A stretch of DNA of 32,000 bases. It comes from Clostridium sp. CAG:417 (GTDB lineage: Bacteria > Bacillota_I > Bacilli_A > RF39 > UBA660). The stretch is taken from the NCBI GenBank assembly GCA_000432835.1, contig FR890370.1, positions 102,092-134,091 of the forward strand. The letters run 5' to 3'. The stretch's first letter is position 1, and each line of letters begins with the position of its first letter. Positions 7,172-32,000 of the stretch are shown in pieces. Both the position numbers and the translations under genes were made by a program. The notes beneath the pieces were generated by a model. That model was given only the letters and a program-made list of their open reading frames with translations, did not search any database and was not told where the DNA came from.

Positions 7172-7717
7172 TTGAAAAAAATAGATCAAAAAGGTTTTAC
7201 ATTAATTGAGTTGCTAGCTGTAATAGTAATATTAGCCATCTTAATGATAACAGCTATCCCAGCGGTTACAAATTCAATTGCAAAATCAAGAAAGGATACA
7301 TTTGCAACTAACGCTAAAAACATTATTAATGCTGTAAGAACTTCAATGGCTAGTGGTGATGTCAAAAAAGAAACAACTGCTGGTTCAGATGAGTGTTCAT
7401 ATCCTGCTACAGGAGCAAAAGTTGCAGTAGTCCTAACAAGAGCAAACTTAACCAGTTTACTTGAACGTGGAGGAGATAAGAGTTCATTCGGTAGAGCATA
7501 TGCTGAAACAGGTACTAACGCTGTTAAACCTGCAGGATATGTAGTTATTGAAAATAGTAATGATAAATTTAGTTATTCAATTTCTTTAGTTGATGCAGGC
7601 GGAAATGGAATTGCTGCTCCAATAAAAGAATCAGCAATCACAGGTTCATCAGTAAAATTAGGAAATCAAGCATTATCATTATTAAGCACTGGTTATACAC
7701 TATGCTATATAAATTAG
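7172..7717 (+). CDS. type IV pilin-like protein, tandem paralog 1 (TTG start)
   Basis: MKKIDQKG|FTLIELLAVIVILAILMITAIPAV prepilin motif. Cys pair (C75/C178 of the ORF). RBS aggtaggag 8 nt upstream of TTG. Confidence 0.85.
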   Translation: MKKIDQKGFTLIELLAVIVILAILMITAIPAVTNSIAKSRKDTFATNAKNIINAVRTSMASGDVKKETTAGSDECSYPATGAKVAVVLTRANLTSLLERGGDKSSFGRAYAETGTNAVKPAGYVVIENSNDKFSYSISLVDAGGNGIAAPIKESAITGSSVKLGNQALSLLSTGYTLCYIN

Positions 7718-7733
7718 GAAAGGAATAAATAAT

Positions 7734-8279
7734 ATGAAAAACACAAATGAAAAAGGTTTTACATTAATTGAATTATTAGCAGTTATCGTTATTTTAGCTA
7801 TCTTAATGATAACAGCTATCCCAGCGGTTACAAATTCAATTGCAAAATCAAGAAAGGATACATTCGCAACTAATGCTAAAAATGTTATCAACGCTGTAAG
7901 AACTTCAATGGCAAGCGGTGATGTAAAAAATGGATCAGAAGAATGTTCATATCCAGCAGAAGAAAGTGCAGTTAAGATAACAATTACATCAGATGCCCTA
8001 AAGGGATTACTTGAACGTGGTGGAGATAAGAGCTCATTTGGTAGAGCATATAATGATTCTTACGTAATTATTTATAATAAGGGCGGAGATAAATTTGATT
8101 ATTACATTGCTATCACAGATAAAGGTGGAAACGGAGTTGCTACATTTACCAAAGAATCTGCTTTAACTGGTTCAAACATTAAATTAGGAAATGCCGGTAA
8201 CATTACTGGAACATTTAAACCAGAAGGATCTGAAAATGCTCTTGCTACTTCTAACATATCAACTTGTACAGTTAGCTAA
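7734..8279 (+). CDS. type IV pilin-like protein, tandem paralog 2
   Basis: MKNTNEKG|FTLIELLAVIVILAILMITAIPAV. The first ~65 aa are nearly identical to paralog 1 and the C-terminal globular part has diverged. Conserved LLERGGDKSSFGRAY block and a Cys pair. Confidence 0.85.
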   Translation: MKNTNEKGFTLIELLAVIVILAILMITAIPAVTNSIAKSRKDTFATNAKNVINAVRTSMASGDVKNGSEECSYPAEESAVKITITSDALKGLLERGGDKSSFGRAYNDSYVIIYNKGGDKFDYYIAITDKGGNGVATFTKESALTGSNIKLGNAGNITGTFKPEGSENALATSNISTCTVS

Positions 8280-20036: not shown

Positions 20037-21077
20037 TTATTTTTTTGTGAACTTTTTACATTTAATTAACTTATCGATCCTAAGTGTTGTTTCAAAAGAT
20101 TTTAAATATTGTCTTAAAAAATATATTTTATCAAGATTATTATCAAAAATCATATCACATAACTCTAATGCCTGTTCTAAGTATATTTGATTATATGAGT
20201 ATATCTGATAATTTTTCTTATTATGTTTATATCTAGTATCTATAATATCATCATTAAATTTAGTACTTTTGGCGTATAACAATAATTTAGAAAAAAGATT
20301 AACATTGTTTTGCCAAATTACAGGATCAAGCGTTCCATTTGGGCAACGAAACTCTATTGTGTTACCTTCTTTTTTTACAGCACTTATAAGATGAACGTGT
20401 CCAAAATTAACTGCATTATTTTTCATGTCGCCGATTTGAAATAAGACTTCTGAAAGTGGAATGCTTGGCTTTTTAAAATACTTATAATCATTTTTTAATT
20501 CCTCTACCATACTTGCAGCATATTGAAATATTTTTGGTCTAGGATTTAAAAACTCACCATATGAAAATCTATAAATAATATTTTCATAAGTCGCCCACAA
20601 CTTAAAAAAGTTAAACCAATTCTTTTTATCACTTCCAAGAATTTGAGAACCAATATGAACATGGCCTCCAGCATTTTTAAAAGAAATATTCGTATTTATA
20701 CTATTAGCTTTCTTTAAAACCGCATTGCAAATTTTTTTTAACATTTGCCAATTAGCCTTATTATCAACTAGTATAGGTGAGTTTATTTCAGCACCTCTTT
20801 CTAGTGATGAGTCACAACAAACTGGCCATGATTCTGAAAAATACCTTTCTAATAATAGGCGAGTAGTAACAGTATTAATTCCTTCAAACTCTATTTCAAG
20901 TCCAAAAGTATTATCACTATCTAAATTAATACTATTTCTAAGTTCCAGTTTATATTTGTTTTCTAAAGTAAATAATTCCTGTAAATCATATCCTTTCAAA
21001 TTAGAAAGAATGCAATTATCTTTAGGTGGCAAATATTTAAATATTGTAAAGTCATTTACTAGTTCATCTTCATTCAT
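20037..21077 (-). CDS. amidoligase-like enzyme (glutamine synthetase / carboxylate-amine ligase fold)
   Basis: Ordered motif set GLEIEFEG, GAEINSPIL, GGHVHIG and NTIEFRCPNGTLD. This is the E-x-E / E..SP / H-x-H / E-x-R pattern of GS-fold amidoligases (Amidoligase_2/GCS2-like). Confidence 0.6.
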   Translation of the reverse strand: MNEDELVNDFTIFKYLPPKDNCILSNLKGYDLQELFTLENKYKLELRNSINLDSDNTFGLEIEFEGINTVTTRLLLERYFSESWPVCCDSSLERGAEINSPILVDNKANWQMLKKICNAVLKKANSINTNISFKNAGGHVHIGSQILGSDKKNWFNFFKLWATYENIIYRFSYGEFLNPRPKIFQYAASMVEELKNDYKYFKKPSIPLSEVLFQIGDMKNNAVNFGHVHLISAVKKEGNTIEFRCPNGTLDPVIWQNNVNLFSKLLLYAKSTKFNDDIIDTRYKHNKKNYQIYSYNQIYLEQALELCDMIFDNNLDKIYFLRQYLKSFETTLRIDKLIKCKKFTKK

Positions 21078-21079
21078 CG

Positions 21080-21922
21080 TTATTTCCTCAATCTATTATA
21101 GTTATCCATTTCTGTTTTCAAGCTTTTTTTCAATTGCTTAATATAATTAGCATCAGGATTTAAGTTACGCCTACATTCTTTTAGTTCTCTTACAGCTCTA
21201 TTACGATTAGCGATGGGGAGGTCAAGCTCTGTAGAGGCTTTATATAAACACAATTGAATTATACCGGTAACAAGAAGAAATAAGGCCGTCTCGAAAAGAT
21301 TATCAAAGAAACTTTCTTGAACAACAACATATTTATCTGAAGAAGTGGAGTAGGTAATAACTTTAATTATTTCTTTTTGCTTTAGTTCTTCCTCAGCAAC
21401 ATTATTCCTAGTTTCTATCTTATTTGAAGTAGGTTCTCCTAATATTTTTTCAACGTCTTCTAAATCTCTCTTTAAAAAATCTTCAACATTTTCATAAGTA
21501 AGAGGATCAACTTGATAGGTTTTTACACTTCTTTCAAAATAGTTATTATCACATTTTTTCCATTCTCCATAACAAAGCACAAGATTATAATTACTCATAT
21601 GCTCATCATTTACATGACCAAGATATTCTTCTTCATAACTAATATTTCCTAAAGAGTCCATTTCCTTTGTTGTATGTAATTCTAATTTTCTATTGCCTGT
21701 ATAAAAAGGAGACATACCAGCTAATGATGCTGCCCCAAAACCTACGCCAGCAACTAGAAGATAGGGTGCAATAAAACTAGTAAAAGCTTTTATGCCTTTT
21801 TTTCTATAATATTTTTCTTTATTTAGCTCTTTTTGAATATTGTTAATCTGATTCTCTAAATCTAAAAGTAATCTTCTTTTATTTTTTAACTCACTCTTAG
21901 CTATCTTTCTATCTTTTTTCAT
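21080..21922 (-). CDS. two-TM membrane protein with cytoplasmic coiled-coil ends and a ~150-aa external domain
   Basis: Basic coiled-coil N-terminus, TM1 (FIAPYLLVAGVGFGAASLAG), a Cys-containing middle domain, TM2 (ALFLLVTGIIQLCLY) and a basic C-tail. Its stop lies 2 nt before the amidoligase ATG. Confidence 0.55.
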   Translation of the reverse strand: MKKDRKIAKSELKNKRRLLLDLENQINNIQKELNKEKYYRKKGIKAFTSFIAPYLLVAGVGFGAASLAGMSPFYTGNRKLELHTTKEMDSLGNISYEEEYLGHVNDEHMSNYNLVLCYGEWKKCDNNYFERSVKTYQVDPLTYENVEDFLKRDLEDVEKILGEPTSNKIETRNNVAEEELKQKEIIKVITYSTSSDKYVVVQESFFDNLFETALFLLVTGIIQLCLYKASTELDLPIANRNRAVRELKECRRNLNPDANYIKQLKKSLKTEMDNYNRLRK

Positions 21923-22094: not shown

Positions 22095-22178
22095 TGGTGC
22101 GGGTAACAGGAGTTGAACCTGCACGTCTGGGACACTAGATCCTAAGTCTAGCGCGTCTGCCAATTCCGCCATACCCGC
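22095..22178 (-). tRNA. tRNA-Leu (anticodon TAG), type II with long variable arm, CCA encoded
   Basis: The reverse complement reads GCGGGTA...CTAGA-CTTAGGA-TCTAG...GGTTCAACTCCTGT-TACCCGC-ACCA. Acceptor and anticodon stems pair perfectly. Confidence 0.93.
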
Positions 22179-22181
22179 AAG

Positions 22182-22258
22182 TGGTGGACCCTATAGGACT
22201 TGAACCTATGACCGCCCGGTTATGAGCCGGATGCTCTAACCAACTGAGCTAAGGGTCC
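22182..22258 (-). tRNA. tRNA with CAT anticodon, most likely tRNA-Ile2 (lysidine-modified) rather than elongator Met
   Basis: The reverse complement reads GGACCCTTAGCTCAGTTGGTTAGAGC...CCGG-CTCATAA-CCGG...GGTTCAAGTCC...AGGGTCC-ACCA. The acceptor and D-arm resemble known tRNA-Ile(CAU) sequences from memory. Confidence 0.9.
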
Positions 22259-26128: not shown

Positions 26129-27028
26129 ATGAAAGTAATTTGTATTGGACACATTGCTTATGACCTTACTTTTCCTGTTTCAAGAATTCCAGAAGAAAAT
26201 ACCAAAATTAGAACTACACATCACGTAGAATGTGGAGGAGGCCCAATGCGTAATGCGGCTCTTCCTCTAGCTTTCTGGCATTCAAACGTTGAATTATGTG
26301 GGATGATAGGCAACGATTATCAAGGTGAACAAATAATTAATGAACTTAAAAATCTAGGAATTGGTACTAAATATATTGTAAAAAGAAATGGCATTCCAAC
26401 TGATCAAGCAGTTATTCTTGCTGCTACAAATGGTACAAGGACAATTGTTACTTCCGTAAAGCCTAAAGAACATCCACTGATAAAAATTTCTGAAAATTTT
26501 GATGGTATTCTAATTGATGGAGAAGAGTATCAAACATCCCAACAAGTCTTAAAAAACAATAAGACTGCCTTATCTATAATTGATGCCGGAAAGTATAACA
26601 GTGAAGTTATATCATTAGCTCATAAAGTAAAGGTTGTAGCTTGCAGTAAAGAGTTTGCTGAAAAATTCTCTCAAGAAAAGATTGACCCATCAAACATGGA
26701 ACAATTAAAAAACATTCATCTAAAATTAGAGAATGAATTTAAAAATATAGTAATTATTACCCTAGAGGAGTATGGTTCATTCACAAAAATAGGTAACGAA
26801 TATAAATTAATTCCCAGTATGAAAGTAAATACTGTTGATTCATCAGGGGCTGGCGATATTTTTCATGGAGCCTTGCTATATTTTATGTTAATGAACTATT
26901 CTCTAGAAGATTCTATCAAACTTTCAAATATCTGTGGTGCTTTAGCAACTACAAGGCTTGGCAACAAAGATTTTAATTTTTCTCTAACTAAAATACTTAA
27001 ATATGGAGGCGTCAATGATATTATCTAG
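26129..27028 (+). CDS. PfkB-family carbohydrate/nucleoside kinase (ribokinase-like)
   Basis: N-terminal GG motif region (ECGGGPMRNAA) and C-terminal DSSGAGDIFHGAL (DTxGAGD) ATP/anion-hole motif. Confidence 0.8.
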   Translation: MKVICIGHIAYDLTFPVSRIPEENTKIRTTHHVECGGGPMRNAALPLAFWHSNVELCGMIGNDYQGEQIINELKNLGIGTKYIVKRNGIPTDQAVILAATNGTRTIVTSVKPKEHPLIKISENFDGILIDGEEYQTSQQVLKNNKTALSIIDAGKYNSEVISLAHKVKVVACSKEFAEKFSQEKIDPSNMEQLKNIHLKLENEFKNIVIITLEEYGSFTKIGNEYKLIPSMKVNTVDSSGAGDIFHGALLYFMLMNYSLEDSIKLSNICGALATTRLGNKDFNFSLTKILKYGGVNDII

Positions 27029-27266
27029 TTATCCTACAATAGATTTACATGGTTGTGATAGAGATTATGCTGTTTATTTAGTAAAAGATTTTATAAATGA
27101 CAACTATAAATTACAAAAACATACTATCGTTATAATTCATGGCATAGGAAATGGTATCTTAAAAAATGCTGTTCATAAACACTTAAAAAATAACCATTTA
27201 GTAAAAGAGTTTCATGTCGACGTAATAAATACAGGGTGTACGGTAGTTGATTTAGATCTCAATTAA
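27015..27266 (+). CDS. stand-alone Smr (small MutS-related) domain protein
   Basis: TIDLHG...VIIHGIGNGILK Smr signature. ATG 27015 lies 5 nt after ggagg; the ORF-track alternative is 27003. Confidence 0.8.
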   Translation: MILSSYPTIDLHGCDRDYAVYLVKDFINDNYKLQKHTIVIIHGIGNGILKNAVHKHLKNNHLVKEFHVDVINTGCTVVDLDLN

Positions 27267-27296
27267 AAGTTAAACTATGAAAGTTTAACTTTTTTA
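27267..27296 (+). terminator. intrinsic terminator ending the pfkB-smr unit
   Basis: aagttaaac-tatgaaa-gtttaactt perfect 9-bp stem followed by a T-run. Confidence 0.8.
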
Positions 27297-27300
27297 TATA

Positions 27301-27371
27301 AAATAGTAATAACAGCGCATCTTGTGCTTATTAATAAAATGTGTTATTATATCAAAACAAATACAAAGGGG
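27301..27371 (+). repeat. promoter-bearing repeat, copy 1 (partner at 31787-31863)
   Basis: The core 27317-27371 aligns with 31810-31863 at roughly 46 of 55 positions by eye. It contains TTGTGC, 17 nt spacer, TATTAT with TGt extended -10 (27322-27350). Confidence 0.7.
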
Positions 27372-27522
27372 ATAATAAAGGATATACCCAAAGTATATAA
27401 ATAAGTTAAAAAGCCTTATAATACAAGGAATTGATGAATGTTTGAATTTTATTAAAATTTGATAAACACCAAGAAAAAATCAAATTATTATACGGTAAAA
27501 TATAATTACGGAGATGATTAAA

Positions 27523-29463
27523 ATGAATAGTCAAGATTTAACTTTATTGTCAGAAGGACAAATTTGGGGAAACGATAGTGAATCCCAATTAGAAGTAATT
27601 AGAAAATATGGAACAAAAGCTGCAATTACAGATTTATGTGTTTTAACAGGTAGTTATTTATGTGAAGATACTGATTATAATATAGATGAAGATAAATCTT
27701 TAACTGGTAGAACTAGTTGGTTTTGGACTAGATCTGATGATGGCAATAATGATGTCCGCACGGCCGAGGAGGATGGTATTAGGCACATCAAGTGTAGGTA
27801 TAAACGCCATGGTGCTGTTCGCCCAGCTTTGCAATCTTCTGTAATCTTTTCCCAAATCTCCCCGAACAGAGTGAGGGGATACAATGAAACAGAAGAAGTA
27901 GAATATGGAGAATATCCTCAAAATGCTGCTGATTCAAGAATGCAAAGTATACTAGAGGCAGAATATATACTAAAGGCAGAATATAATAGAGGAATGAATA
28001 AAACAGGAAGAAGTTACACTTTTGATTCTGTAAAATATGATGACTATAATACAGGATTTAAACCTGTAACCTATGAAGAATACGAATATCAAGGAAAGGA
28101 ATATATTCGTATAAAAGCTAACTCTGTTTTTGGTGGCAAGAGATTCCTGCTTTCAAATGGTGTTAAATATAGAAATGGTGATTACGTTTGGGTAGAAGTA
28201 TCACCGGTTAAATGGTTGATAGATGATAGAACAGGAATTTTAATTTCAAAAAAAGGATTGGTTTCTGGTATAAGGTTTCTTGATAAAAATACTAATTATA
28301 AAGGTGATTTTGATAGAACAGAAATGAAAGAATATCTTGATAGATATATGCTTCGAGATTTAACTCAAACTGTAACATTTACTCGTGTTCAAGATATGAC
28401 ACCAGAAGAAAAAGCTCAATTTGAGGAAGAACAAAAACAAGCTGAAAGAAGAAGAAACCCTTATGGTTTAAAATTTGGACAAGTAAGTGAAGAAGAAATC
28501 ATAAGAGGAGCAATAGAAAGTGGTGTAGCGGTATTCTTGCATGGCCCTTCATCAGAGGGTAAATCTGCAAGAGTAAAACAAATTGATCCTACTTGCGAAA
28601 TAATATATCTTCGTAATGCGACACCAGAAAGTTTAAATGGTAAAAGTGTATATAATGGATCAACAGGAGAAATGATGGATGTTCCACCAACATGGCTTAA
28701 GAAATTACAAGAAAAATGTGAAAAGGAACCAAATAGACTTCATGTAGTATTCTTTGATGAAATAACAAATGCACTACCAAGTATTCAAGGTATAGCGTTT
28801 AATATAGTTTTAGATAGAGAAGTAAATGGTATTTGGAAATTACCAGAAAATGCTAGAATTGTAGCAGCAGGAAATGATATGAAAGATTCATTAGCTGCAA
28901 ATCAGTTAGCAGAACCATTATTCAATAGATTTGCTCATGTATATATTAAAACAACAACCGAAGGTTGGTTAAAGTGGGCAAGTGAACATAATATACATCC
29001 AGCAATTTATTCTTATATTGCTTATAAGAAGGGTGAAACACTCCGAAGTAAGTATGATGGCAAGAAACCTAATGCTGATCCTAGAAAGTGGGAAATGGCT
29101 TCTAAAATGCTTTATGCAACAGGATGTCCAGAAATGTTAAGGGCATTAGTAGGTGAAGATATAACAAGAGAATTTGTTGAGTTTTGTAAACAACAAGTAA
29201 TAACATTAGATGATGTAATAAATGGAAATTATACCGATAGAGATATGCAGGCATTAAATACTGCTGAAAGATATGCAACAACTATGGAATTAGCACGGGT
29301 AGATGATGATAATTTAGAAAAAGTTAGAGGATTCGTTACAGGCTTAGGAGCAGAGTTTGGAGCAATTTTTGATGCTTTATGGACACATGGCGATGAAAGT
29401 AAATTAGAAAGACTTGCAGAAGCAAAACTTGCTGAAATGCCTGGAGGAGGTATAAGAAGATAA
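27523..29463 (+). CDS. fusion protein: N-terminal W-x-R-S...V-R-P-A-L motif domain(s) plus C-terminal MoxR/AAA_5-type AAA+ ATPase
   Basis: Walker A GPSSEGKS (nt 28543-28566), Walker B VVFFDE (28744-28761) followed by ITNA, sensor-1 AAGN, and NRF Arg. N-terminal TSWFWTRSDD...GAVRPAL motif. ATG 27523 lies 9 nt after ggag; the ORF-track alternative is 27514. Confidence 0.8.
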   Translation: MNSQDLTLLSEGQIWGNDSESQLEVIRKYGTKAAITDLCVLTGSYLCEDTDYNIDEDKSLTGRTSWFWTRSDDGNNDVRTAEEDGIRHIKCRYKRHGAVRPALQSSVIFSQISPNRVRGYNETEEVEYGEYPQNAADSRMQSILEAEYILKAEYNRGMNKTGRSYTFDSVKYDDYNTGFKPVTYEEYEYQGKEYIRIKANSVFGGKRFLLSNGVKYRNGDYVWVEVSPVKWLIDDRTGILISKKGLVSGIRFLDKNTNYKGDFDRTEMKEYLDRYMLRDLTQTVTFTRVQDMTPEEKAQFEEEQKQAERRRNPYGLKFGQVSEEEIIRGAIESGVAVFLHGPSSEGKSARVKQIDPTCEIIYLRNATPESLNGKSVYNGSTGEMMDVPPTWLKKLQEKCEKEPNRLHVVFFDEITNALPSIQGIAFNIVLDREVNGIWKLPENARIVAAGNDMKDSLAANQLAEPLFNRFAHVYIKTTTEGWLKWASEHNIHPAIYSYIAYKKGETLRSKYDGKKPNADPRKWEMASKMLYATGCPEMLRALVGEDITREFVEFCKQQVITLDDVINGNYTDRDMQALNTAERYATTMELARVDDDNLEKVRGFVTGLGAEFGAIFDALWTHGDESKLERLAEAKLAEMPGGGIRR

Positions 29464-29855
29464 TGGAAAACAAGAAAGAAATATTATTATCATATATTAA
29501 AGCAAATGTTGCACCAATATTAGTTGATTTTATATCTGGTAAGGATTTGAATGGTGCAGTTGTAGTACCTGCCAATGTTGATATTAAAGAGTTAAATGGT
29601 CATTATGATGGAGCAGATTTTATGCCTCCTAAATGGCTTAACGAAATATTAAGTACAAATGCCAGTAGAATATTAGTAATTGATAAAATTGATTCGATTT
29701 CTAAAGAAGAACAATTAAAGTTTTGTGAATTATTAGAACATAGGAAAATATCTACATTTAAATTACCTAAAAGCTGTATAATAATTGTTACTGCAAATGA
29801 AATAAATAAAGATAAAATAAGTGAAGAAATATTTTCATTAGTTGCACGAATTTGA
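29463..29855 (+). CDS. degenerate, P-loop-less paralog of the upstream AAA+ core (130 aa)
   Basis: TAATG overlap with gene A. It aligns by eye to A residues ~325-478 (PPKWL vs PPTWL; ILVIDKID vs VVFFDEIT; KLPKSCIIIVTAN vs KLPENARIVAAGN; EEIFSLVARI vs EPLFNRFAHV). SGKDLNGA replaces GPSSEGKS. Confidence 0.65.
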   Translation: MENKKEILLSYIKANVAPILVDFISGKDLNGAVVVPANVDIKELNGHYDGADFMPPKWLNEILSTNASRILVIDKIDSISKEEQLKFCELLEHRKISTFKLPKSCIIIVTANEINKDKISEEIFSLVARI

Positions 29856-29865
29856 GGTGTGAGTT

Positions 29866-31374
29866 ATGAAATATGATATAGCAGCATTAAAAAGAAAAAT
29901 GCTTGTTAAATATCCTTTTTTTGGGAGTGTAGTAGCAAGTGTAGGTTATAAAGAAAATAAAGATATACAAACCGTAGGTACAGATGGAGAAACAATATAT
30001 TATAATCCGGAATATTTAGAGGGATTAAGTGTTGAGGAACAAACTTTTATATTTGCCCATGAAGTATGTCATATTGCATTCAATCATATATTAAGAAGTG
30101 AAGGTAAGAATCCTGAATTATGGCATATTGCTACTGATGGTGTTATTAATCAATTTTTAAAACGAGATGGTTTAAAAATGGCACCCGGTGTTGTTGATAT
30201 GGCAGAAGCTATTAATTATGACGCTGAACAATTATATGAAAAATTATTACAAGAAAAACAACAAAGACAACAACAAAGTGGACAAGGCAATAGTCAACAA
30301 AATCACCAACAAAGTAGTGGTGGTAGTCAAAGTGAAAATAATCAACAACAACCTCAATCACAACAAGATAATGGAGAAACACAGAATCAGCAACAGCCTC
30401 AATCACAACAACAAGGTAATTTAGGTAGTGGAGGTTCACAAGGGCAAGAAAAGCAATCACAAGAACAGAGTGGTGGTGAATCTGGGGAAGATTCACAAAA
30501 AGAAGATAAATCAAAACAAGATGTTGGGCATGATACTCACAGTATGTGGGAACAAGCAGTAAAAAAACATAAAGAACAACGAGAAAAAACTGATAAAAAA
30601 GAGAGTTTATTAGACAAATTATTAGGAAAAGATAAAGAGAAAACTGAACTTGAAAAGAAACAAGAAGAACTTGAAAGTATGGGAGAAAAAGATGCTTTTA
30701 AAAAGAACCTTGAAGATAAAAAGAAACAGCTAGAAGAATTAAAAGAGGTAATTTCAAAACAAGCATCACAAGCAGGCACATCAACGAATAGAGATATTAG
30801 AACAGTTAATAATATAGGTACTGCTAAACCAATAATTGATTGGCGTTATGTTTTAAGAGAGGCAATTAAGTATGATGTTGATTGGTCTTATAAAAATGCA
30901 ACATTAGAAGATGGTGTAGTTAGTGCTAATTTAGAAGAACAGCCAATGCCAGAAACTGAAATTGTTCTTGATACAAGTGGCTCAATAAATGAAGTATTAT
31001 TAAAGAACTTTTTAAGAGAATGTAAAAATATATTACAACATACTAAATTAAAAGTTGGATGTTTTGATACAGAATTTTATGGATTTCATGAGATTAGAAC
31101 AGAGGAAGATATAGAAAAAATGCGATTTGAAGGTGGAGGAGGTACTAACTTTGACGTTGCTGTAGGTGCTTTTTCAAGACGAGTTGAAAATAAAATAATT
31201 TTCACTGATGGTAAAGCTTCAATGCCAGATATGCCACTTGATGCAATATGGATAGTTTTTGGTGGTGAAAAAATTAATCCCAAAGGTGGTAAAGTAATTC
31301 ATATAGACAACGAACAACTTGAAAGACTATATAATTATCAAATGACTAATGAAACAAAAGGAAGGTCAAGGTAA
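29866..31374 (+). CDS. HExxH metallopeptidase-like domain (DUF2201_N-like), Q-rich/KE-rich linker, and vWA-like domain
   Basis: YPFFGSVV...VGTDGETIYYNPEYL...FIFAHEVCHIAFNHILR (HExxH at nt 30058-30072). MIDAS-like VLDTSGS (30970-30984), then GGGGTNF and IIFTDG. RBS gaggtg. Confidence 0.8.
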   Translation: MKYDIAALKRKMLVKYPFFGSVVASVGYKENKDIQTVGTDGETIYYNPEYLEGLSVEEQTFIFAHEVCHIAFNHILRSEGKNPELWHIATDGVINQFLKRDGLKMAPGVVDMAEAINYDAEQLYEKLLQEKQQRQQQSGQGNSQQNHQQSSGGSQSENNQQQPQSQQDNGETQNQQQPQSQQQGNLGSGGSQGQEKQSQEQSGGESGEDSQKEDKSKQDVGHDTHSMWEQAVKKHKEQREKTDKKESLLDKLLGKDKEKTELEKKQEELESMGEKDAFKKNLEDKKKQLEELKEVISKQASQAGTSTNRDIRTVNNIGTAKPIIDWRYVLREAIKYDVDWSYKNATLEDGVVSANLEEQPMPETEIVLDTSGSINEVLLKNFLRECKNILQHTKLKVGCFDTEFYGFHEIRTEEDIEKMRFEGGGGTNFDVAVGAFSRRVENKIIFTDGKASMPDMPLDAIWIVFGGEKINPKGGKVIHIDNEQLERLYNYQMTNETKGRSR

Positions 31375-31379
31375 AACAA

Positions 31380-31407
31380 AGATTTAGAAAAAATTCTGAA
31401 TCTTTTT
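31380..31407 (+). terminator. intrinsic terminator after the three-gene cassette
   Basis: agatttagaa-aaa-ttctgaatct 10-bp stem (one G.U pair) followed by a T6 run. Confidence 0.7.
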
Positions 31408-31481
31408 TGTATAATTTTAATCTTCCTTTATATATAATGAGAATCATTTTATTTGTATACGATATCCTATAAATGGTTAGT

Positions 31482-31783
31482 TAAATGCAATTTGTATTAA
31501 ATTATTGATATTTAAGGGTATAATGCAATTTATACCTTTATTTTTTATGAAAATATGTATAATAAATAGTGAAAAAGGAAATTTATTGCACTATGAAAAC
31601 AAGTTTACATTTTTATTTTCAAATTAAATGCAACTTTTTGTAATAGTATATTTAATCAATTGTTAGTCTTTTTTCATAGTATAACCTCCTTCGCTCTCTA
31701 AGCAAAACAATTGATTGAGATATATTAAAATGCATTATTAGACTAAATGCAACTTTAAAAATAAAAAAATAAAATTGCATTTA
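31482..31783. promoter_or_regulatory. cluster of TAAATGCAAYTT motifs (putative operator/iteron array)
   Basis: Exact 12-mers at 31482-31493, 31625-31636 and 31744-31755 (forward) and 31772-31783 (reverse), plus degenerate copies near 31521 and 31727. The last two full copies form a 9-bp inverted repeat with a 22-nt spacer. Confidence 0.5.
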
Positions 31784-31786
31784 CTT

Positions 31787-31863
31787 TTTAAAGTAATAAT
31801 AATCACCATGCATCTTGCAATTATTAATAAAATGTGGTACTATACCAAAACAAATACAGGGGG
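31787..31863 (+). repeat. promoter-bearing repeat, copy 2 (partner at 27301-27371)
   Basis: TTGCAA (31815-31820), 17 nt spacer, TACTAT (31838-31843), followed by the same CAAAACAAATACA...GGGG tail as copy 1. Confidence 0.7.
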
Positions 31864-31877
31864 CATATGTAAACAAA

Positions 31878-32000
31878 ATGAAAAATAAATTTGAAGAAAT
31901 ATGGATTATTAAATATAATATTGCATCAGCATATTATGAACACAATGGAAATTTAGAAATACCAGAAAAATTTAAAACCTTGAATGGTTATGAATATGAT
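31878..32000 (+). CDS. helicase-associated (HA) domain-like protein, N-terminal fragment (runs off window)
   Basis: MKNKFEEIWIIKYNIASAYYEHNGNLEIPEKFKTLNGYEYD fits the W..x..Y..a..Y...hGnL.iP..f pattern of HA-domain repeats. Only 41 codons are visible. Confidence 0.4.
   Translation, partial: MKNKFEEIWIIKYNIASAYYEHNGNLEIPEKFKTLNGYEYD

Follow-up and report, generated by a model that had tools for sequence, protein, structure and literature searches.

Target and effector genes probably stranded from a diversity-generating retroelement: a MoxR-class ATPase and zincin-vWA cassette in gut Bacilli

Ternary conflict systems built around a von Willebrand factor A (vWA) protein and a MoxR ATPase, and diversified by diversity-generating retroelements (DGRs), have been described (Kaur et al., 2020, PMC7159879; Doré et al., 2024, PMC10907252). 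Proteins that join an AAA ATPase to a variable domain are DGR targets in CPR (candidate phyla radiation) bacteria, according to the passages that treat them (Paul et al., 2017, via PMC10907252; the UVR4 'Midasin' targets of Wu et al., 2018, PMC5758913). A phage pair of a MoxR ATPase and a metallopeptidase-vWA protein, from jumbo phage group 2.2, was proposed to serve virion assembly (Iyer et al., 2021, PMC7824862), and DUF6273 was described as a C-type-lectin-like domain that is targeted by DGRs in the 'tentaclins' of phages (PMC10743442). Here we analyze a cassette of three genes, A, B and C, in 32,000 nucleotides of Clostridium sp. CAG:417 (contig FR890370.1, positions 102,092 to 134,091; this whole stretch is called the window and its own numbering is used). 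The cassette is probably the target-and-effector half of a mobile DGR system, stranded without its retroelement, and would encode a once-diversifiable cytoplasmic sensor ATPase coupled to a protease.

The three genes lie on the + strand. Gene A (27523-29463, 646 aa) encodes a MoxR-class AAA+ ATPase that is preceded by a helical linker and, before this, an N-terminal module with the variable region; gene B (29463-29855, 130 aa) encodes a truncated paralog of the AAA+ core of A; and gene C (29866-31374, 502 aa) encodes a zincin-like DUF2201_N domain, a linker and a DUF2201 vWA domain. An earlier note on the window, made from the sequence alone, had described three coupled + strand genes with a TAATG overlap between A and B and a spacing of 10 nt between B and C, and its coordinates and junctions were confirmed; the GAGGTG ahead of C extends across the stop codon of B. 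Gene A has an alternative in-frame ATG at 27514, which is likely too near the GGAG at 27507-27510 to serve as the start.

The relatives of the cassette were collected in a scan of one genome per species, which detected 75 loci with A homologs of 50-92% identity. These are mostly from uncultured gut Bacilli, with record titles that include Bacilli, Tenericutes, Candidatus Faecisoma, Coprobacillus sp. CAG:605 and Clostridium sp. CAG:609. The A-B-C order was strictly syntenic in related gut Bacilli, and some Clostridia had A and C only. Clustering of neighboring open reading frames (ORFs) revealed a recurrent block directly 5' of A that consists of two helix-turn-helix (HTH) genes, a 162-aa gene, a weakly bAvd-like gene and a reverse transcriptase (RT) gene, the product of which matched RVT_1 (9e-19) and had LGNQSSQ and YMDD motifs. 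Between the bAvd-like gene and the RT gene is a template repeat of 80-100 nt, and its partner is codons ~76-102 of A. The template ends in ...CCCAGATTTGC and the variable copy in ...CCCAGCTTTGC, or in ...CCCAGTTTTGC in some loci.

Mismatches between template and variable region were concentrated at template adenines. In seven loci (L001, L009, L015, L021, L022, L025, and L046) every mismatch was at a template adenine, and over all loci the mismatches comprised 150 adenine sites vs. 33 others. Template-adenine positions had an entropy of 1.42 bits across 28 unique variable regions, compared with 0.31 at the other positions (Mann-Whitney p 2.7e-11). Some A proteins that were otherwise near-identical differed solely in the variable patch (P0010 vs. 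P0012), and the variable region was hypervariable in RT-bearing lineages that were 93% identical to the window cassette. These patterns indicate that the DGR of the relatives rewrites the variable region of A by adenine-specific mutagenic retrohoming. The earlier note had recognized an extra N-terminal domain on the ATPase, which is indeed present, and had missed that this domain holds a DGR variable region in relatives. A gene of 162-177 aa without a family assignment was always found between the HTH genes and the bAvd-like gene (L001 7319-7807, L015 7293-7826, and equivalents), and it may be an unrecognized DGR accessory factor.

Enough upstream sequence was available for 59 species-level loci. 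A full RT was detected in 13 of these and RT fragments, which represent intermediate states, in seven; the remaining 39 had none within the fetched flanks, and RT and Avd profiles built from the relatives detected no further RT in the flanks of these 39 loci. Beyond the 13 species-level relatives, an RT was also present in two other loci (L079 and L091). Thirteen loci had at least two A copies, and tandem arrays contained up to six. Arrays were observed in L019 (A-A-B-C-A-A-B-C-A-A), L029 (A-B-C-A-A-A), L026, L031, L038, L041, L059, and L060. The A copies of L019 carry different variable regions; L029 has four A copies with identical variable regions and with non-adenine mismatches to the template. 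An exhaustive search for A gave 573 clusters at 50% identity (E < 1e-30), many of them full length and some with two matched stretches.

No RT, Avd or template repeat was detected in the window, in record L076 or in about 10 kb past the downstream end, and neither the window nor its flanks contained the variable region a second time. The window thus has neither an RT nor a template/variable pair, and ongoing hypervariability within its population was not observed. Locus L079, whose cassette DNA is 93.6% identical to that of the window, has the gene order methylase, HTH, HTH, 162-aa gene, Avd, RT, A, B, C. A remnant of the left end of this island is present at 27368-27442 (+ strand), which matches L079 3253-3326 (81%; just 5' of the DNA methylase gene) and, over a shorter length, L024 5196-5257 (81%). 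From 27445 onward the window matches L079 from 7936 onward, the last base of the RT stop codon, with 93.6% identity. The ~4.6 kb of L079 between the two flanking homologies contain the methylase gene, the two HTH genes, the 162-aa gene, the bAvd-like gene, the template repeat and the RT gene. The junction placed at 27443-27444 looks like the deletion of this methylase-to-RT block of ~4.6 kb, which is the simplest reading. The leader that extends from the RT stop to the A start in relatives is conserved in the window (27445-27522, + strand) and includes the GGAG ribosome-binding site at 27507-27510. Homology to the cassette begins at 27445-27488 in the close relatives L079, L080, L001-L006, L008, and L025 and at 27519 in L026; it ends at 31408-31452 in most relatives and at 31343-31376 in two.

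The former variable region is at 27753-27832 (+ strand; codons ~77-103 of A, ending in ...GAVRPAL) and forms a GC-rich, A-poor patch with ~52% GC and 25% A, compared to 33% GC and 39% A for the whole of gene A. The earlier note had called the locus compositionally patchy; the patch is best read as a fossil of DGR hypermutation, which accounts for this patchiness. The variable region of the window differs from the template of the nearest relatives at 10 adenine sites and three non-adenine sites, whereas active loci have no non-adenine differences. Among 14 members of the window's protein cluster, which diverge by no more than 2.5% elsewhere, the variable peptide was identical or had the single change K90Q. 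The nucleotides of the variable region were identical in six of eight other strain contexts and had a single mismatch in one; the eighth was out of register (indel in A). The variable region thus appears frozen in the window's species, with a single specificity fixed.

The N-terminal module of A (residues 1-290; 27523-28392, + strand) was modeled as a single compact unit with a predicted local distance difference test (pLDDT) score of 95.4 and a predicted template modeling (pTM) score of 0.92. It is a confidently predicted module without a Pfam or structural assignment, and it evolves several-fold faster than the ATPase domain. Residues 48-106 weakly matched Pfam DUF6273, under the cut-off (E 0.003-0.02), in the region that corresponds to the C-terminal third of that family. 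No isolate phage record in the tblastn search and no record in the plasmid collection covered the module.

The AAA+ ATPase domain (28480-29382, + strand; residues ~320-620) contains Walker A (GPSSEGKS, residues 341-348, nt 28543-28566), Walker B (VVFFDE, 408-413, nt 28744-28761), sensor 1 (AAGN, 448-451) and arginine (NRF, 468-470) motifs, which are invariant or nearly so across 36 homologs. The expectation that Pfam would place gene A in AAA_5 did not hold, as the match had 15.1 bits against a cut-off of 22; AAA_5 was matched at E ≤ 0.01 by 10 of 40 family members, with a best value of 4.4e-7. A profile of the 36 homologs gave nothing beyond chance against the PDB, so the MoxR assignment was taken from the predicted fold. 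Foldseek placed the AlphaFold model of A (pLDDT 85.7) closest to NorQ (9qh4; E 5e-10, TM score 0.63 on the target) and then to CbbQ2 (6l1q; 1.9e-8). By predicted fold and motifs, the domain is assigned to the MoxR class, as the earlier note had proposed. Its estimated dN/dS was ~0.04-0.1 and it is 77% identical to the Clostridia copies despite saturated synonymous sites; it is evidently under strong purifying selection. A pseudogenised remnant is ruled out, as all of the three ORFs are intact and under purifying selection. NCBIfam contains no family for A, B or C. When the sequences were read, no N-terminal hydrophobic leader, signal peptide or membrane segment was recognized in A, B or C, and the system is therefore probably cytoplasmic.

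Gene B aligned with residues 360-473 of A (hhalign probability 90%, E 1.5e-6). Its product does not have the Walker A lysine and has D-K instead of D-E at the Walker B position, and B was absent from Clostridia-type loci. As the note had suggested, B is read as a truncated, inactive paralog, or partial duplicate, of the ATPase core of A. The prediction of a metallopeptidase and a vWA domain for gene C was borne out, with both domains above the Pfam cut-offs: DUF2201_N at 122.8 bits (cut-off 23.2; 2.6e-35) and DUF2201 at 50.2 bits (cut-off 26.4; 3.5e-13). The HExxH motif HEVCH (residues 65-69, nt 30058-30072, + strand) is in the DUF2201_N 'putative metallopeptidase' domain, the region of which aligned weakly with the minigluzincin MJ1213 (E 0.02). 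A disordered, low-complexity linker rich in Q, E and K follows (nt ~30238-30765, + strand), and the metal ion-dependent adhesion site (MIDAS) motif DTSGS (residues 369-373, nt 30970-30984, + strand) is in the vWA domain. Every motif that the note had named in A and C was at its given residue. Motif loss in most C homologs, which the note had regarded as a sign against an effector role, was not seen; all 58 have the DxSxS MIDAS motif and 53 of them also have HExxH. The homologs are 381-761 aa long, and linker length varies among them. Phage homologs of C (records H31-H60, L081, and L082) are widely labeled 'putative homing endonuclease' or 'HNH endonuclease'. As the family is a zincin and vWA protein, these names look like misannotations inherited from the PHROG label.

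The cassette shares with the vWA-MoxR ternary systems a MoxR ATPase, a partner with vWA/MIDAS, a peptidase and the DGR diversification of a domain that is predicted to bind ligands in the cytoplasm, and in both cases function was proposed from genomics only. The arrangement differs. The variable C-type-lectin (FGS) domain of the ternary systems is at the C-terminus of the vWA protein or in a separate target, whereas here it is the N-terminus of the ATPase that varies. No effector or FGS domain lies C-terminal to the vWA domain of C, which is itself C-terminal and is accompanied only by the N-terminal zincin domain. As their third component the ternary systems have a VMAP protein, which in most cases includes a trypsin or caspase domain; here that place is taken by a dead AAA+ fragment, and it is C that joins a zincin peptidase to the vWA domain. 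No VMAP component was recognized, the third gene being the AAA+ core paralog, and no other conserved partner was present across loci, as judged from the neighboring ORFs and not from a VMAP profile. The hosts of the ternary systems are mostly multicellular cyanobacteria, actinobacteria and proteobacteria, in contrast to the small-genome gut Bacilli and some Clostridia that contain the cassette.

The CPR targets also hold an AAA ATPase of the MoxR/midasin kind. In the passages that describe them, the variable region lies downstream of the ATPase motif (Wu et al., category g) and sensing is assigned to the C-terminal region (Doré et al.), whereas the variable region of A is N-terminal; the same passages report no zincin-vWA partner. 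An N-terminal variable region was found in only three of 372 DGRs (Wu et al., PMC5758913). The phage pair (phrog_1297 and phrog_1314; jumbo and N4-like phages) has the same succession of a MoxR-type ATPase and a DUF2201_N zincin plus DUF2201 vWA protein. The phage ATPases, however, are ~340-370 aa long without the N-terminal module, there is no dead paralog, identity to the A/C cassette is 25-32%, and no RT or Avd gene was annotated in the two regions inspected. The tentaclins are similar in that their target gene varies near its 5' end, with a G-x-V-R-P-like end to the variable region, and in the weak Pfam similarity; they are tail-associated proteins with Ig-like domains, and the similarity of A is under the Pfam cut-off and the structural match to a DUF6273 phage protein is not significant (E 0.19).

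NorQ-NorD, CbbQ-CbbO and RavA-ViaA share the ATPase fold and the vWA/MIDAS partner with the cassette, but have defined metabolic clients encoded nearby, and a profile search against the PDB did not detect sequence similarity between their ATPases and A. To our knowledge, the vWA partners in these systems do not have a peptidase domain. The searchable literature contained no description of the architecture found here and nothing that joins DUF2201, PF13203 or PF09967 to DGRs, and targets with an ATPase or vWA domain go unmentioned in Roux et al. (2021) and in two DGR reviews. The architecture found here differs from the ternary, CPR and phage systems through the N-terminal variable region of the ATPase, the zincin-vWA partner, the dead AAA+ paralog, the lack of VMAP and the gut Bacillota hosts.

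The genomic position of the cassette evidently varies between species. The gene for pheT was 5' of A in only two of the 75 species-level loci when these were screened for flanking genes. Elsewhere the cassette is between the genes for RNase Y and FtsY, and in L079 it is 3' of smpB, a putative RsmD-type methyltransferase gene (Cons_hypoth95) and a DNA methylase gene, with an Abi_2 gene 3' of it. The L015 cassette lies between a Mob_Pre relaxase gene (2.3e-30) and a large serine recombinase gene, which points to an integrative mobilizable element; L009 has the same context by cluster-level evidence. A prophage-like contig from IMG/VR (L091) has tail-fibre-like, holin and endolysin genes and two minus-strand ORFs, followed by Avd, RT, A, B, and C; it was the one full-length relative in the scan of viral contigs. 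Matches in the plasmid collection were to the ATPase domain alone and were labeled as MoxR or AAA family ATPases. A chaperone of the NorQD/CbbQO kind with a neighboring client is ruled out, as the neighbors are not conserved, and the scarcity of pheT together with the relaxase, recombinase and prophage lysis genes beside the cassette agrees with the earlier view of an accessory, conflict-type module rather than a chaperone for a nearby metabolic client.

The stranded target-and-effector interpretation suggests how the system would work. A would assemble into a ring, with its N-terminal modules serving as hypervariable receptors for ligands; in AAA+ proteins the N-terminal side is the usual place of substrate- or adaptor-binding domains. 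Ligand binding could be relayed through the ATPase to C by way of the vWA/MIDAS domain, as in NorQ-NorD, CbbQ-CbbO and RavA-ViaA, and the metallopeptidase of C would then be unmasked or positioned and an invader or host protein cleaved. The proteins recognized would likely be those of phages or other mobile elements, to the benefit of the host or of the carrier element. B may be a lineage-specific accessory as a dead paralog, and in the window's species a single specificity would have been fixed. The presence of a DGR, of arrays with several A copies and of mobile carriers argues for the recognition of changing, foreign ligands, and the conserved peptidase motif for a proteolytic output. We infer a conflict or defense role for the cassette, a reading that gains weight from the DGR link.

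Several results weigh against this interpretation. A C-type-lectin fold would be expected of a DGR variable domain, and Foldseek searches of the N-terminal model against the PDB and BFVD gave no match at E ≤ 0.001; only one of 40 family members matched DUF6273, under the threshold. In PADLOC-DB v2, which the note had named as a check on whether the trio was already cataloged, A, B and C had no convincing match, the best being short stretches of unrelated models (E 0.002-0.05, at most 15 bits at E 0.002). With no RT in the flanks of 39 of the 59 loci, most family members must work without ongoing diversification. The trio was not a variable insertion within the window's species, where it followed smr in eight of the eight contexts among the matches listed (the exact Smr protein was in 1738 collection blocks), and only the region 3' of C varied. 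Within this species the trio is therefore fixed at one site with one specificity, and this agrees equally well with defense and with a domesticated or housekeeping role.

A domesticated role would make the trio a housekeeping MoxR-vWA maturation factor for a fixed cellular client, acting in cofactor insertion or complex remodeling in the manner of NorQD or CbbQO, with the DGR history irrelevant to its present function. The constant position after smr in strains of a very prevalent species, the frozen variable region beside an ATPase under strong purifying selection, the small genomes (1.2-1.5 Mb contigs), where dispensable genes tend to go, and the nearness of the fold to NorQ and CbbQ are what such a factor would show. 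No client gene is conserved, however, and the neighbors differ between species, and C keeps its peptidase motif. We know of no such motif in NorD and CbbO. The arrays of up to six A copies in relatives, and the different variable regions of the L019 copies, suggest instead a repertoire of recognition modules, and the housekeeping role is considered unlikely.

The phage homologs bear on a second alternative, a chaperone-protease that folds, assembles or processes the structural or transfer proteins of the mobile element itself and whose variable N-terminal domain tracks changing clients. The AAA+ part of A matched phrog_1297 (6.6e-47) and C matched phrog_1314 (1.5e-64); phage tblastn matches were detected in 698 records for A and 499 for C, especially in those of N4-like and jumbo phages. 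A candidate C homolog of matching size was 1-2 kb 3' of the ATPase gene in both of the phages inspected. The virion-assembly role proposed for the phage pair (Iyer et al., PMC7824862) counts for this alternative and against a conflict role, and one prophage-like contig carries the full cassette. That cassette, however, is in an accessory position after the lysis genes and not among the structural genes, most copies are chromosomal with no phage genes nearby, the phage ATPases are without the N-terminal module, and a chaperone for self-assembly has no obvious need for adenine mutagenesis of a receptor. An element chaperone is, in our judgment, quite improbable. Display of the variable domain outside the cell, as in most described DGR targets, which are ligand-binding surface or tail proteins (PMC5758913), and as the weak DUF6273 similarity to phage receptor-binding proteins (PMC10743442) might hint, is very hard to reconcile with a variable module fused to an ATPase that needs cytoplasmic ATP, with soluble partner proteins and with the lack of a signal peptide or membrane segment in A, B and C on reading their sequences.

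Returning to the retroelement-stranded cassette, a broader and more tentative proposal is that the whole family is a retroelement-programmable AAA+ protease, in which the DGR would rewrite the substrate receptor of a MoxR ring that drives a zincin-vWA protein. It would provide gut Bacillota and their mobile elements with anticipatory recognition at the protein level. Such a machine might be locked by loss of the mutator and retention of one fixed variant, directed at a persistent invader or at a new cellular client. Should this mechanism be right, a retroelement would rewrite the substrate-recognition domain of a compact ATPase-protease machine of three genes, and evolvable targeted proteolysis would have a natural template. 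DGR-linked MoxR-vWA conflict systems would then reach beyond multicellular bacteria to small-genome Bacilli of the human gut and to the prophages and integrative elements of these Bacilli. The loci include an active mutator with hypervariable receptors, decaying RT fragments, and an apparent clean deletion with a fixed receptor. This comparison set allows a direct test of the benefit of diversification and of selection once diversification stops.

The cassette is preceded and followed by intrinsic terminators. The upstream pheS-pheT-pfkB-smr unit is closed by a terminator at 27265-27296 (+ strand; 12-bp hairpin at 27265-27293 plus a U-tract) with a dG of -10.1 kcal/mol and a z of -4.6; none of 200 shuffles folded as well. 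The terminator of the cassette is at 31378-31409 (+ strand; 12-bp hairpin at 31378-31405 plus a U-tract), with a dG of -10.8 kcal/mol and a z of -4.3. The earlier note had given the cassette both a promoter and a terminator of its own, and only the terminator was supported: a consensus scan of 27000-32000 found 31 promoter matches vs. 31.6 expected from shuffles, which is uninformative in AT-rich DNA (28% GC).

The bracketing repeats that the note had mentioned were recovered as a 73-nt direct repeat with 81% identity between copies. Copy 1 (27302-27374, + strand) looks promoter-like on sequence reading, with TTGTGC, 17 nt and TATTAT preceded by TG. Copy 2 (31795-31867, + strand) is directly 5' of a gene that starts at 31879, of which it is a promoter-like region. 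The pair could be either the mark of an insertion with target duplication or that of recombination. The end of copy 1 is the exact start of homology to the left end of the island.

The gene 3' of the cassette (31879 onward; L076 14356-15495) encodes tandem helicase-associated (HA, PF03457) domains (3.2e-74, four stretches) and has internal repeats with a spacing of 231 nt. Its called length differs among strains of the same species (171, 297, 379, and 528 aa in the L083-L090 contexts); other strain contexts have ORFs of 304 and 533 aa in its position with no HA match recorded, and ahead of it some strains have an additional minus-strand gene of 232 aa or a gene of 130 aa. The 10-mer AATGCAAYTT occurs five times in the window vs. 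0.64 times expected by chance. All five copies, four on the + strand and one on the - strand, are within 31484-31781, the 300 nt from the cassette terminator to the promoter of the HA gene, and they look like putative binding sites of a regulator.

Two other regions of the window were distinctive. At 20037-21922 (- strand), next to the genes for tRNA-Leu and tRNA-Met (22095-22258), are an Amidoligase_2 (PF12224) gene and beside it a 280-aa ORF without a Pfam match. The adjacent 181-aa ORFs at 7172-7717 and 7734-8279 are tandem paralogs, with DNA identities of 85% over 218 nt and 90% over a further 50 nt.

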